The notes beneath the pieces are model-generated. The model worked only from the letters and a program-made list of their open reading frames with translations. It searched no databases and was not told the DNA's origin. Below, piece by piece: positions 1 to 4,032 of a DNA stretch of 10,322 bases (position 1 is the stretch's first letter; each line of letters starts with the position of its first letter). The stretch comes from a virus (taxonomy: Duplodnaviria; Heunggongvirae; Uroviricota; Caudoviricetes), in the IMG/VR virus record IMGVR_UViG_2693429623_000011; one strand, written 5' to 3'. A program made the position numbers and the translations under genes.

Positions 1-17
1 GGAGGGTGAGGGGAGTA

Positions 18-45
18 AGCCCGCTACATTGCGGGCTTTGTCTTA
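18..45 (+). terminator. Candidate rho-independent terminator (hairpin plus T-rich tail)
   Basis: Inverted repeat AGCCCGC(18-24)/GCGGGCT(31-37) with a 6-nt loop, followed by TTTGTCTT. Confidence 0.35.
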
Positions 46-86
46 TAGTCTTATCACTGTTTCAAGTCGGTGAGGGCACCAAAAAG

Positions 87-120
87 AAAACCCGCAGTTT
101 TTACGCTGCGGGTTTGTTGT
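87..120. terminator. Candidate bidirectional rho-independent terminator
   Basis: Stem CCCGCAG(91-97)/CTGCGGG(106-112) with an 8-nt loop. It is flanked by an A-run (81-90, giving a U-tract for minus-strand transcripts) and by TTTGTTGTT (113-121) for plus-strand transcripts. Confidence 0.45.
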
Positions 121-140
121 TCATATCTGTGAGATAGGGT

Positions 141-158
141 GCCTTATCCGGCCTTACC
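141..158. repeat. Partial REP-like (repetitive extragenic palindromic) element
   Basis: GCCTTATCCGGCCTTACC closely resembles the enterobacterial REP half-consensus CGCCTTATCCGGCCTAC. Only one arm is present. Confidence 0.3.
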
Positions 159-171
159 CTGGCAACCGATT

Positions 172-193
172 GACGGGGGATTGCTCCCCCGTC
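172..193 (-). promoter_or_regulatory. Stable stem-loop just downstream of the hok stop; candidate hok mRNA 3' structural element
   Basis: Perfect 9-bp inverted repeat GACGGGGGA / TCCCCCGTC with a 4-nt loop, located 10 nt 3' of the hok stop codon on the minus strand. hok mRNAs are known to end in a stable 3' hairpin involved in fold-back inhibition. Confidence 0.4.
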
Positions 194-202
194 GCGGTTT
201 CC

Positions 203-343
203 TTACTGCTTACACTGTAAGAACGCCGCAAACTCCGCTCCCCAGAAGCTCATCCGTATTTCACACAGCGAACCGTGCAACATCCAGATGATGAGGATTG
301 CCGTCACGCAGAACGTGATGGTCGTAAGCGATTTTTGCGACAT
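203..343 (-). CDS. hok: Hok/Gef-family type I toxin (small membrane peptide, 46 aa)
   Basis: Manually translated minus-strand ORF, below the six-frame track cutoff: MSQKSLTTITFCVTAILIIWMLHGSLCEIRMSFWGAEFAAFLQCKQ. It has an N-terminal hydrophobic helix followed by the SLCEIR and AAF motifs shared with Hok, HokA and Gef. AAGGAG lies 8 nt upstream of the ATG, and the gene sits in the +1 overlap with the mok-like ORF. Confidence 0.75.
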   Translation of the reverse strand: MSQKSLTTITFCVTAILIIWMLHGSLCEIRMSFWGAEFAAFLQCKQ

Positions 344-473
344 AGCACTTGCTCCTTTTCCGGAGAGGCGCTAACCTTTCACTTGTCAAGGTAATGCGGT
401 TAGGGCCTCGGTTAAACAGAGATGTTTTCCGGGGCCTTTCCACATCTGGCCTTCGGGTATTCCCTCCGACCAT
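261..473 (-). CDS. mok: mok-like overlapping reading frame (modulator of killing), 70 codons
   Basis: A 70-aa minus-strand ORF begins upstream of hok and overlaps its first ~27 codons in a different frame, mirroring the mok/hok arrangement of plasmid R1 (mok is also 70 codons). No strong Shine-Dalgarno sequence was seen, and the protein itself is not recognisable. Confidence 0.4.
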   Translation of the reverse strand: MVGGNTRRPDVERPRKTSLFNRGPNRITLTSERLAPLRKRSKCYVAKIAYDHHVLRDGNPHHLDVARFAV

Positions 474-533
474 CAGCCGAAAGGCACCCGCGCGTAATCT
501 ATCGCTTTTTTGTTACTCCGGCAATTCTGCCTG

Positions 534-2765: not shown

Positions 2766-3875
2766 TCACTCTGTTTCTGCTATCCATTCCGGGATTTTTG
2801 CCTCAAGCTCAAGCTGCGTGGTAAAGCCGCTGTTATCAATGGTGTGCTCGGCTTTTGCAATAATCCAGTCCTGATTATCAATCTCGCTTTTAAATCCTGT
2901 TACCGTGCCATGCATTTCGGGGTAGAGTTCTGCACGTCCATGCGCCAGTGTGATGGAGAATGATGCGGCTCCGCGTTGTAGCTGCTGCCACTTTGCCGCC
3001 GCTGCACGTCTTGCTGCCTGCTCGTTCTGATAAGTTTTGCGTAACACAAACACGTTGCCTTCCGCACCTTCCATATAGTCGCCTTCCCGGCTGCTGCTTT
3101 TCTCCTTTTTTGGTTTTGACGGTTTGCGGCGTTTCACGCTGACTTTTTTCTTTTTCCCGTAATTAAGATCAAGCCAGTAAGCGCGTACCCCCGTATACGC
3201 TTCGCGGTCAGCAATGCGGAACTGATGGCGATCGCCGCTGCTGCGTGTGATGGCGAACGAGGGCAACGGCTGGCCCTGTGCGTTCACGCCACCACCGGGC
3301 ATGATGAATAACAGATTACCGCTTTTTACCGTGGTGATTGCGCCCAGCATTTCCGCCATGCGCGTAAGGAAGGACATGTCGCTTTCTTCGGTCTGGTCGG
3401 CGTGGTCGATTTCGATATCCATCAGCATTTCGCTGATTTGCGGTTTCAGACCATACCGATGAGCGATGGCGGATACCACACGCTCAACGGTCACATCATG
3501 CCAGGACACCTCACGTTTAACGTTAAATTCAGCCCGAAAATCTGCGCTTCTGGCTGAAACAGTCAGCCTGTCCGGCGGTCCTTCGTGAGCGATTTCATCA
3601 ACAATGTAAGTGCCTTTTTCTGTCAGCGGTTCTCCCTTCCAGCCAATGAGAACCGTCAGGCGCGCGCCCCGTGGCGGTAGCTGCAACTGACCATCCGCAT
3701 CATCCAGCGTGATGGTGAGCTGGTCCGCCTCAAATCCCCGGTTGTCGGTCAGTGACAGGCTCATCAGGCGCTCTGCCACGCCTGACAGCGTTTTACCCTC
3801 CGCGAGAATATCAAAATCCGGCATTTTCACGGGGTCTGTGCCCTGACTGAGCAATTGCATGGTGGTGTCGGTCAT
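2766..3875 (-). CDS. D: P2 gpD-like tail protein (phage late control gene D family)
   Basis: The translation resembles the gpD family, especially the C-terminal block ...ITLAHGRAELYPEMHGTVTGFKSEIDNQDWIIAKAEHTIDNSGFTTQLELE. Start chosen at ATG 3875 (MTDTTMQ...) because AGGGAGGGAG lies 5 nt upstream. The longer ORF reaching 4007 has no ribosome-binding site and would nearly abut FI. Confidence 0.8.
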   Translation of the reverse strand: MTDTTMQLLSQGTDPVKMPDFDILAEGKTLSGVAERLMSLSLTDNRGFEADQLTITLDDADGQLQLPPRGARLTVLIGWKGEPLTEKGTYIVDEIAHEGPPDRLTVSARSADFRAEFNVKREVSWHDVTVERVVSAIAHRYGLKPQISEMLMDIEIDHADQTEESDMSFLTRMAEMLGAITTVKSGNLLFIMPGGGVNAQGQPLPSFAITRSSGDRHQFRIADREAYTGVRAYWLDLNYGKKKKVSVKRRKPSKPKKEKSSSREGDYMEGAEGNVFVLRKTYQNEQAARRAAAAKWQQLQRGAASFSITLAHGRAELYPEMHGTVTGFKSEIDNQDWIIAKAEHTIDNSGFTTQLELEAKIPEWIAETE

Positions 3876-4032
3876 CTGCTCCCTCCCTGTGTGGCATGGT
3901 CGCATGTGCGTGCGGAGGGGGTTACTGCTTTTTGTTGTCGCCGTGGCGGGAGAATGGCGCAGGGGTGAGATTACGCGCGTGGTGGGTGATGATTGTTGCC
4001 GAATCATTTAACGGATACAAGGGGTTGAAGCT
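3876..4032. promoter_or_regulatory. Divergent intergenic region between D (minus) and FI (plus); presumed promoter region for both
   Basis: A 157-bp non-coding gap between two divergently oriented genes, each with a strong Shine-Dalgarno sequence. No canonical Ogr-dependent late-promoter dyad (TGT-N12-ACA) was found by eye. Confidence 0.3.

Follow-up and report, generated by a model that had tools for sequence, protein, structure and literature searches.

A probable hok/sok-family type I toxin-antitoxin cassette beside ogr in a P2-like prophage

The DNA analysed here (the window) is a stretch of 10,322 nucleotides from the IMG/VR virus record IMGVR_UViG_2693429623_000011 (Caudoviricetes). Near its start, a minus-strand Open Reading Frame (ORF) encodes a peptide of 46 aa, MSQKSLTTITFCVTAILIIWMLHGSLCEIRMSFWGAEFAAFLQCKQ, which an initial annotation had assigned to the Hok/Gef family from the letters alone. 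Profile searches bear this out: comparison with Pfam HOK_GEF (PF01848), which had been proposed as a check, gives 29 bits, where the cutoff is 22 (E 8.1e-7), and the peptide also matches PHROG 251 (E 1e-22). The same protein is found in RefSeq as WP_000078923.1 (“Hok/Gef family protein”), and phage records annotate it too. Among NCBIfam models, the best match is HokA (NF007290), which shares the W-M-x-x-x-SLCE and AAFL-C motifs with the window peptide; assignment as a HokA equivalog was rejected, as the score is 34.1 bits while 89 are required.

A search of genome contigs with a Hok-alignment profile detected only 5 loci, several of them on contaminant-looking contigs. These loci were poor in divergence and were replaced in the comparisons by diverged copies from E. 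coli, plasmids and Stx phages. The hok ORF is intact in all 16 complete homologs, with 45–46 codons and no indels, and dN/dS is about 0.2–0.5. Judged from these comparisons, the hok of this family is under purifying selection, and the ORF is a genuine Hok/Gef toxin gene, not a chance reading frame.

Together with its surrounding elements (Table 1), hok very probably makes up, at ~78–524, a complete type I toxin-antitoxin cassette of the hok/sok family, accessory cargo of a P2-like (P88/Xuanwuvirus-type) prophage. A type I toxin locus had initially been delimited at 150–533; the locus itself stands, but its 3' limit does not, as fbi and the terminator lie beyond it.

Table 1. Features of the hok/sok-family cassette, in window coordinates
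Feature	Position	Strand	Description
hok promoter	496–524	-	Predicted; -35 TTGCCG (524→519), 17-nt A-rich spacer, -10 TAGATT (501→496)
Full-length hok mRNA, predicted	78–489	-	~412 nt, +1 at ~489 (GGGUGCC...); RF01794 model start at 489
tac element	475–489	-	5' end GGGUGCCUUUCGGCU; partner is fbi in full-length RNA, ucb in truncated RNA
ucb / anti-SD box	431–440	-	GAAAGGCCCC
GAGG box	406–409	-	Positional homolog of the R1/hokB/hokC mok SD; no start codon after it (Rfam alignments, frame analysis)
dcb box (GCCUC)	365–369	-	Partner of GAGGC in truncated RNA
hok Shine-Dalgarno (SD) GGAG	352–355	-	8 nt before ATG
hok toxin gene	203–343	-	46 codons; Pfam HOK_GEF, PHROG 251, dN/dS, RefSeq
70-codon ORF proposed as mok	261–473	-	Exists, out of frame with hok; judged fortuitous
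3' stem-loop	165–200	-	Core 172–193; predicted cap protecting the processed active mRNA
fbi element	137–155	-	…AAGGCCGGAUAAGGCACCC, complementary to the mRNA 5' end
Rho-independent terminator of hok mRNA, predicted	78–115	-	Stem 115→88, then U-run
Predicted Sok promoter	349–377	+	-35 TTGCTC (349–354), 17 nt, -10 TAACCT (372–377)
Predicted Sok RNA	384–441	+	~58 nt: 14-nt single-stranded 5' tail, GC-rich hairpin, UUUCC

The position directly downstream of ogr, noticed from the start, is confirmed by Pfam Ogr_Delta, which places ogr at 534–794 on the minus strand, immediately upstream in the hok sense. The cassette thus sits between ogr and the prophage end. The same cassette is found beside ogr in the free P2-like phages Chuche, P88, PhiR44_2 and P884B11, and homology to the E. 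coli K-12 host stops at window position -62, that is, 62 nt before the window. The suggestion that the locus might come from the host chromosome at the prophage boundary is contradicted by both observations, and by sequence context the cassette belongs to the prophage, not to the host. Of 5426 complete E. coli genomes, 1742 contain it, spread over many sites in the chromosome. Copies 100% identical to that of the window occur in at least 56 genomes. Temperate phages are the main carriers of the subfamily; in Stx phages it is a separate locus downstream of lom, and the same cassette also exists on conjugative plasmids. Directly next to the window cassette lies an inserted AT-rich gene with a PIN domain.

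In P2, only a terminator and attP follow ogr, and the ogr/F-operon terminator lies 11 nt past ogr. Between ogr, which stops at 534, and the hok cassette of the window, no minus-strand terminator is predicted. A terminator 3' of the cassette is present in most P2-like contexts, and the stem at 78–115 also scores as a plus-strand terminator (bidirectional). No homology of the P2 ogr terminator or attP to window 1–140 was found, so the equivalence between the P2 and window terminators is positional only.

The predicted hok promoter agrees with the consensus at 8 of 12 positions, and its hexamers are conserved in position across unrelated genomic contexts in which the flanks diverge. Since a stringent sigma-70 scan of 1–900 listed no promoter, neither for hok nor for Sok, the promoter calls are based on positional conservation. 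The hok-sense strand matches the Rfam model RF01794 from 489 to 330 over its full length (1–157), with 48.4 bits, below the gathering score of 59 (E 1.3e-9 for 900 nt searched). This match was found by permissive search, and a search of the whole window at the gathering threshold gave no match. The predicted full-length mRNA has a minimum free energy (MFE) of -176.7 kcal/mol (z -7.4 compared with shuffles). The mean pairwise identity is 0.96 for tac (16 homologs) and 0.98 for dcb, and homology between contexts stops right after fbi. A GUG mini-ORF (GUG AAA GGU UAG) is conserved in the leader; it was considered as a leader peptide and discarded, as GUA replaces GUG in several homologs.

In the unconstrained MFE fold of the full-length RNA, the 5' end forms a 15-bp 5'–3' helix with 137–155, the ucb pairs with GAGG (partner segment CCGAGGCC), and CUCC, an extension of the dcb, has the hok SD as its partner. 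The 7-bp core of tac/fbi is kept in at least 15 of 16 homologs, with changes between GC and GU only. In the 3'-trimmed RNA (489→165; z -5.5), the MFE fold switches to tac/ucb and GAGGC/GCCUC, and over 17 sequences tac/ucb is 99% paired and GAGGC/dcb 96.8% paired. Both the fold-back pairing and the upstream complementary box, which the initial annotation had named for checking, thus appear in MFE folds. In the 17-sequence alignment, the two conformations are 88–91% paired, compared with ~40% when the partners are slid, a comparison in which the tested structures are favoured over the slid controls because they come from the window's own MFE. The tac, ucb and dcb are nearly invariant, which is seen as conservation without covariation signal.

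A perfect 9-bp hairpin, GACGGGGGA-TTGC-TCCCCCGTC, had also been reported at 172–193. It is present and looks functional: the 3' stem-loop reaches -23.6 kcal/mol (z -4.9), and the hairpin is 99.3% paired across the alignment, with 4 of its 9 pairs changed on both sides (compensatory). A protective role of the 3' stem-loop is known from mutagenesis of R1 (PMC9841398), and by analogy the hairpin would protect the processed mRNA of the window.

In order to compare the states of the ribosome binding site (RBS), opening energies were used in place of SD unpaired probabilities, which are uninformatively low in every state. The median cost of opening the RBS window is 14.1 kcal/mol in the full-length RNA, 10.1 in the truncated RNA and 13.2 in the truncated RNA with Sok, and this ordering, with the truncated form lowest, holds in 16 of 16 homologs. 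The hok RBS is still costly to open when truncated (~10 kcal/mol), and an extra opener may exist; a ribosome standing by at GAGG, or a short ORF in the leader that begins at a non-standard codon, could serve as one.

With these parts intact, it seems extremely improbable that the locus is a non-functional relic in decay, as several hok loci of the E. coli K-12 chromosome are. Decayed copies of the subfamily do exist, for example one with internal deletions on an E. albertii plasmid (L012). In the window, however, the ORF, promoter boxes, tac, ucb, dcb, fbi and 3' hairpin are all intact, and the identical copies in other genomes, the purifying selection on the family and the toxicity reported for near-identical peptides in a preprint (see below) also speak against decay.

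The antisense RNA had been expected at 440–512 on the plus strand, with a T6 run at 505–510 as its terminator. The run actually occupies 506–511 (plus strand), where it sits in the spacer of the hok promoter with no terminator hairpin before it, and Sok is predicted instead at ~384–441 by homology with R1, sokB and sokC together with a conserved promoter and hairpin. The predicted Sok folds at -22.9 kcal/mol (z -3.1), and its tail-plus-hairpin architecture is kept in 17 of 17 homologs. The target of the tail is the most variable segment of the leader, with an identity of 0.62 vs 0.95–0.98. The predicted Sok promoter, positionally homologous to that of R1, is a weak match to the consensus (6 of 12), and the hok-sense boxes underlying it are 0.89–0.98 identical. 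With a length of 58 nt and a distance of 41 nt from the hok ATG, the predicted Sok matches the annotated sokB and sokC, which are 57–59 nt long and 48–49 nt from the hok ATG.

The 70-codon ORF overlapping hok had been taken to match the mok arrangement of R1. In a canonical hok/mok/sok system of this kind, Mok would be the product of this ORF, or of a version of it starting at TTG 387–389, translation of hok would need translation of mok, and Sok would act by blocking the mok RBS. The window does contain an out-of-frame ORF overlapping hok, its GAGG box is conserved at the position of the mok SD in R1, hokB and hokC, and truncation still leaves the hok RBS with a fair amount of structure, a situation which mok translation resolves in R1. 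However, only in the window and in one near-identical copy is the ORF open. The -1 frame of 12 of 17 homologs lacks ATG, GTG and TTG and is closed 13–76 nt upstream of hok, and in at least 8 of 17 no start reads into hok in any of the three frames, even with the near-cognate CTG, ATT, ATC and ATA. The ATG at 473 falls on mRNA position +17, within tac, and has no SD. The in-frame TTG, 46 nt before the hok ATG and present in the window and one other copy, stands 16 nt from GAGG; it is replaced by TAA in phages Chuche and P88, at 93–95% identity. The 70-aa product has no match in Pfam, NCBIfam or PHROGs. We therefore regard the canonical arrangement as very unlikely for the window. The position homologous to the mok start is occupied by AUUA or CUAC, and an in-frame N-terminal extension of hok, like the annotated mokC, was rejected, as an invariant TAG lies 27 nt upstream. 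The phage-borne Hok subfamily of the window appears to have no mok leader gene, which is a mildly new point.

Compared with hok/mok/sok of plasmid R1 (parB), the window shares the Hok/Gef peptide, an mRNA of ~400 nt, the tac/fbi end-pairing, the ucb anti-SD and the GAGG/dcb stem, as well as refolding on 3' trimming and a protective 3' stem-loop, the RNA pairings in silico. Similarly, the predicted Sok resembles R1 Sok, a cis-antisense RNA of ~60 nt with a single-stranded 5' tail and a promoter overlapping the hok SD region. The two Hok peptides are only 28% identical (52 aa in R1, 46 aa here). Moreover, the window subfamily differs from R1 in that it has no conserved mok ORF or start, its leader is below the Rfam gathering threshold, and it is carried by temperate phages, not by a plasmid as the R1 system is. 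The K-12 loci hokB/mokB/sokB and hokC/mokC/sokC have the same leader architecture in Rfam coordinates. The hokB and hokC loci score 110–118 bits on RF01794, vs 48 for the window, and their annotated mokB and mokC ORFs start 57–58 nt upstream of hok, where the window has no start codon.

Another prophage-borne type I system is hokW-sokW from the Stx2 prophage Sp5 of E. coli O157:H7 Sakai. Phage annotation pipelines label homologs of the window peptide “MokW-like host killing” (PHROG 251), which might suggest that the two loci are the same. This identification was rejected: HokW is a HokD-like peptide of 51 aa in cluster 35, while the window Hok has 46 aa, belongs to cluster 72 and is 24% identical to it, and the leader sequences differ as well (compared via primers).

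The toxicity of such peptides was addressed in a 2026 preprint by Escalera-Maurer et al. (bioRxiv 10.1101/2025.08.07.668861). Their tested peptide 72_1621 equals the window Hok except for one residue (T8A), and three of our alignment homologs, StxLyz, lamJ and pB39, are identical to 72_1589, 79_1563 and 82_1289, respectively. These four peptides are outside the three exceptions described as non-toxic on overexpression, and clusters 72, 79 and 82 are named “high abundance clusters”. Peptides near-identical to the window Hok are thus toxic according to the preprint, and for the window peptide itself toxicity is suggested by this literature only. The preprint also reports that hok is enriched in prophages. 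It treats the Hok CDS only, explicitly excluding Mok, Sok and mRNA structure, and its accessible part does not describe the ogr-adjacent position in P2-like phages.

From the folds, a mechanism can be proposed. Transcription from the minus-strand promoter would give a hok mRNA of ~410 nt, in which tac pairs with the 3' fbi; this pairing would leave the ucb paired with GAGG and CUCC/dcb with the hok SD, so the full-length RNA should be translationally inert. Exonucleolytic trimming from the 3' end to the 172–193 stem-loop would remove fbi, after which tac would re-pair with the ucb, GAGGC would take the dcb, and the hok RBS would become ~4 kcal/mol easier to open. The short, unstable Sok is predicted to pair through its 5' tail with the leader loop, which would restore SD sequestration and presumably trigger cleavage by RNase III. 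When Sok is no longer supplied, because the prophage is lost or excised or host transcription is shut off, translation of the stable processed mRNA would yield the 46-aa membrane toxin. With no mok leader ORF conserved in the subfamily, in contrast to R1, ribosomes most likely start hok directly from the GGAG SD of the gene. In this scheme, the steps up to the opening of the RBS are shown in silico, the action of Sok is predicted, and toxin release and direct initiation of hok are inferred; the two promoters, the ends of the transcripts and processing at the 3' end are likewise predictions.

The role of the cassette would most likely be selfish prophage stabilisation by post-segregational killing, and the addiction role suggested in the initial annotation is a reasonable guess. 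The cassette might also assist lysis on induction, as shown for hokW-sokW, though this is unlikely. In such a module, Sok would be lost on induction and Hok would permeabilise the membrane early, raising phage release, and read-through from ogr or the late operon could reinforce this. Deletion of hokW-sokW halves the release of Sp5, and HokW is seen only once RecA-dependent induction has taken place (PMC8621323). The prevalence of the subfamily in temperate phages fits this role, and so does the stretch between ogr and the cassette, which, unlike in P2, has no predicted minus-strand terminator. However, read-through is deduced only from this missing prediction, and HokW belongs to another Hok cluster, so that its role may not transfer. 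A full-length RNA that stays inert until it has slowly been processed at the 3' end is a poor match for a fast lytic cycle, and a lysis role would be senseless on the conjugative plasmids which carry the same cassette.

Abortive infection or phage exclusion, which we consider quite unlikely, would also make use of Sok decay: a lytic phage stops host transcription, Sok decays, and Hok kills the infected cell while the lysogen population is spared. R1 hok/sok has been reported to exclude T4 (reference 15 of bioRxiv 10.1101/2025.08.07.668861), defence morons such as tin and old of P2 are known from P2-like prophages, and the neighbouring PIN-domain gene would suit a defence locus. However, neither Hok nor the PIN protein has a PADLOC match, and according to the same preprint hok is not enriched near defence systems.

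At low confidence, we also propose a broader scheme. Clusters 72, 79 and 82 might represent mok-independent hok/sok systems, in which GAGG, formerly the mok SD, serves as an anti-anti-SD: by capturing dcb in the processed mRNA it would release the hok SD directly, an effect undone by Sok binding. The cassette of P2-like phages might replace the ogr terminator, with ogr and late transcripts carrying hok RNA, so that toxin release would be wired to the lytic programme rather than, or besides, addiction.

The window cassette is already known through RefSeq and phage annotation, its peptide cluster has been catalogued and toxicity-tested, and the prophage enrichment of hok has been reported; the discovery value is therefore small and the practical value lies in annotation. 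The locus marks the ogr-proximal cargo slot of P88-type P2-like prophages, which are present in about one third of complete E. coli genomes, and the “Mok”-style labels given to it are misleading. If the absence of mok is confirmed, the R1 paradigm of mok-coupled translation would not be universal in the family, and the window subfamily would offer a simpler natural hok/sok variant in which to study how the mRNA switch alone gates the toxin.

The 46-codon minus-strand frame beside ogr, proposed in the initial annotation to be a Hok-type toxin gene, is supported by profile searches. When aligned to the Pfam HOK_GEF profile, as had been recommended, the peptide scored above the gathering score (29 vs 22 bits; E 8e-7), and it also matched PHROG 251 "MokW-like host killing" (E 1e-22). 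Its score against the HokA equivalog of NCBIfam is only 34 bits, far under the cutoff of 89. The gene is intact in all 16 complete homologs (45–46 codons, no indels), with dN/dS about 0.2–0.5 where dS is substantial, and its own SD (GGAG, 8 nt ahead of the AUG) is rated good. On sequence grounds the peptide is evidently no chance ORF, and the locus is a real, well-formed hok/sok-family cassette.

Features of the hok/sok-family cassette and its flank, in window coordinates
Feature	Position	Strand	Basis or detail
First downstream terminator of hok mRNA	115→88	minus	terminator prediction
Perfect 9-bp hairpin	172-193	minus (hok RNA)	sequence and folding
hok toxin ORF, 46 codons	203-343	minus	product MSQKSLTTITFCVTAILIIWMLHGSLCEIRMSFWGAEFAAFLQCKQ
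Out-of-frame ORF, 70 codons	261-473	minus	proposed mok
Predicted Sok -35, TTGCTC	349-354	plus	positional homology; followed by a 17-nt spacer
Predicted Sok -10, TAACCT	372-377	plus	positional homology
Predicted Sok RNA, 58 nt	384-441	plus	positional homology with R1, sokB and sokC
hok promoter, predicted	524→496	minus	TTGCCG-17-TAGATT; 8/12 consensus match
Ogr/Delta zinc-finger gene	534-794	minus	directly upstream in hok sense

The cassette carries an existing annotation, and its peptide family has been catalogued and tested before. Many EHEC/STEC chromosomes match the first 1100 bases of the window at 100% identity (≥99% in at least 56 records); RefSeq labels a "Hok/Gef family protein" there (WP_000078923.1), with ihfA on one side and an ogr-family gene on the other. 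Representative Hok peptides were assayed in a recent preprint, in Table S2 of which 72_1621 equals the window Hok apart from T8A, and 72_1589, 79_1563 and 82_1289 are identical to three aligned homologs (bioRxiv 10.1101/2025.08.07.668861). The only non-toxic peptides named in the available text are 19_179, 60_1482 and 69_1540 (bioRxiv 10.1101/2025.08.07.668861); because these four are not among them, they would be toxic on overexpression.

The locus had also been considered as possible host chromosome at the prophage boundary. Homology with K-12 stops at window coordinate -62, just past the ihfA terminator, therefore the entire window falls within an insertion. The free P2-like phages Chuche (95.5% identity) and P88 (93.7%) carry this cassette at the same place beside ogr, as do PhiR44_2, Xuanwuvirus P884B11, 500465-2 and Citrobacter phage Shae_phiSM. 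It thus evidently belongs to the prophage, not the host. In prototype P2, by contrast, ogr is followed by just a rho-independent terminator and attP, and hok is absent. Of the 5426 complete E. coli genomes searched, 1742 contain the cassette, some as many as 9 times, and the ogr-adjacent copies occupy varied chromosomal sites (ihfA, serS, raiA and others). Copies of 74–88% identity follow lom or gpJ in Stx and lambdoid prophages or are carried by plasmids (IncI1, IncF and others), and by this distribution the cassette moves independently of P2-like phages. The homology common to all contexts spans about 137-510, bounded by the hok -10 region and a point slightly beyond the fbi box.

Several of these copies deserve mention. 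Stx and lambdoid prophages carry the 46-aa Hok subfamily downstream of lom (loci L005 and L006, 2566-2706, and L022), and in Stx-phage copies an annotated 402-nt ORF begins at ATGGCACCC and overlaps the fbi box. This locus of Stx-converting phages is separate from the published hokW-sokW of Sp5, which belongs to a different Hok cluster. Identity of the window cassette with hokW-sokW was likewise rejected: HokW (51 aa, HokD-like, cluster 35) is 24% identical and its leader differs. The E. albertii plasmid pEA5_1 (L012, 601-885) holds a decayed cassette, labelled "hok/gef family protein" over 102 nt, with deletions within hok and without the 3' hairpin and fbi. Two copies about 700 nt apart (L010, 670-810 and 1394-1534) come from CP061233.1, a 1-Mb "plasmid" record whose size points to a mis-assigned chromosomal fragment. 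Near-identical copies on contigs named Planococcaceae MAG, Vagococcus sp. and Xanthomonas pisi (857-bp contig) (L016, L018 and L019) most probably reflect contamination of those assemblies with E. coli or phage DNA.

In the R1 paradigm, the hok mRNA has a tac/fbi stem, an ucb anti-SD, tac/ucb and SD/dcb pairings after 3' processing, a protective terminal stem-loop, and the antisense Sok (PMC9841398). Rfam RF01794 is named "sok" but actually models the leader in hok sense; the entire model aligns to 489→330 of the minus strand (E 1.3e-9) at 48.4 bits, under the gathering score of 59, whereas the K-12 leaders of hokC and hokB reach 118 and 110 bits. In the unconstrained fold of the full-length RNA (489→78; MFE -176.7 kcal/mol, z -7.4), 15 nt at the 5' end form the tac/fbi helix with 137-155, and ucb (GGCC.CCG) pairs with the GAGG box (CGG.GGCC). 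RNA cut after the 3' hairpin (489→165) refolds into tac/ucb and GAGGC/GCCUC (SD-box/dcb), with z -5.5. Across the 17-sequence alignment, pairing reaches 88.1% for the first conformation and 90.8% for the second vs about 40% for partners slid by 1–3 columns, a comparison biased in their favour since the structures come from the window's own fold. The 3' hairpin, present as first described, shows 99.3% pairing, and 4 of its 9 pairs are altered on both sides. The tac/fbi core is retained in at least 15 of 16 sequences with GC↔GU changes only, while tac/ucb is 99% paired yet invariant, and invariant helices carry no covariation evidence. Within the hok CDS, another, small hairpin lies at 301-321 on the minus strand (codons 8–14; CCAUCACG-UUCUG-CGUGACGG). 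Among homologs, both partners differ in 5 of its 8 pairs, the strongest covariation in the alignment after the 3' hairpin, which suggests conserved RNA structure there.

By positional homology with R1 and with the curated K-12 annotation, Sok would be expected to start about 40–50 nt upstream of the hok ATG and to extend about 57–59 nt away from it. In K-12, sokC (59 nt) and sokB (57 nt) have their 5' ends 49 and 48 nt upstream of hokC and hokB. Because this geometry and a conserved fold put the predicted Sok at the position in the table, its former placement at 440-512 is most probably wrong. The predicted promoter matches the consensus at just 6/12. The predicted RNA folds (-22.9 kcal/mol, z -3.1) with a single-stranded tail of 14 nt at its 5' end, then a GC-rich hairpin and UUUCC; tail and hairpin are predicted in 17/17 homologs despite differing inner hairpin sequence. 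The leader target of the tail is among the most variable leader parts (mean identity 0.62, vs 0.95–0.98 for tac/ucb/dcb), which would fit antisense-specificity diversification among co-resident paralogs. The T6 run formerly proposed as the Sok terminator lies at 506-511 rather than 505-510; it is the other strand of the A-rich hok promoter spacer, and no terminator hairpin precedes it. The predicted hok promoter keeps its position across unrelated flanks; a stringent promoter scan did not list it.

The 70-codon ORF exists, but the mok arrangement ascribed to it does not stand. Its ATG at 473 is mRNA nucleotide +17, within tac, an SD is absent, and searches of Pfam, NCBIfam and PHROGs found no match to its 70-aa product. 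Of the 17 homologs, 12 lack ATG/GTG/TTG in the -1 frame, which is closed 13–76 nt upstream of hok; these 12 include Chuche and P88 (93–95% identity), with TAA in place of the window's in-frame TTG. Even with near-cognate starts and all three frames allowed, at least 8 homologs have no start reading into hok. A mokC-type in-frame extension is ruled out by an invariant TAG 27 nt upstream of hok. The mokC and mokB AUGs lie about 7–8 nt past GAGGCC in Rfam coordinates, where the window has AUUA and other lineage members CUAC, AUAC or AUAA. The phage-borne lineage thus appears to be organised without mok. Its absence seems to pass unremarked in the available preprint text, because Mok was explicitly left out of that analysis (bioRxiv 10.1101/2025.08.07.668861).

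Without mok, the fold switch and the predicted Sok could gate hok directly. In the full-length fold, hok SD to AUG lies in an 11-bp helix with UAGCGC.CUCC (94.7% paired across homologs); in the truncated fold, GCCUC of the SD partner is taken by GAGGC. Simple SD unpaired probabilities were uninformative. Direct gating is possible because the computed median cost of opening the hok RBS falls from 14.1 kcal/mol for the full-length RNA to 10.1 after truncation and is 13.2 once the Sok-complementary segment is blocked, an ordering found in 16/16 homologs. Since the RBS of the truncated RNA still costs 10 kcal/mol to open, an additional opener might be involved.

From the prophage end at about -62 to the hok cassette there are two terminator-like hairpins, at 17-38 and 88-115. 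The stem at 88-115 receives a terminator score on either strand, and the one at 17-38, with its plus-strand T-run, could keep ihfA transcription from running on into the prophage.

On the other side of ogr, a 500-aa PIN_4-domain protein gene (1038-2540, minus) is inserted before gpD. Its GC content is 35–43% vs 50–59% in the flanks (AT-rich flanks about 800-2800), and it is missing at this position in Chuche, P88 and other prophages, which have ogr directly next to D. The gene resembles an acquired moron, possibly for defence or a nuclease; PADLOC gave no match for the protein. A 413-aa ORF (2766-4007, minus) matches Pfam Phage_GPD over residues 135–393, whereas RefSeq has only an 801-nt "VgrG/Pvc8 family" CDS and a small pseudogene, which points to an error in start site or annotation more than to truncation of gpD. 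A Com/DNA-methyltransferase (Mom-like) pair separates the hok cassette from att/int in Chuche (L002, 1956-2898) and at L007 (434-1382); since some P2-like phages hold this pair there, the ogr-att interval is a variable cargo slot.

The novelty is low, and only the apparent mok-less organisation of the phage-borne lineage is modestly new. Because the same cassette is also on conjugative plasmids, prophage addiction (post-segregational killing of cured cells) is favoured by default. Abortive infection is another possible role. A third is help with lysis and phage release when the prophage is induced, a role demonstrated for hokW-sokW (PMC8621323). No predicted terminator was found between ogr and the cassette, whereas P2 terminates 11 nt past ogr, so ogr transcription may read through into the cassette in lytic growth.
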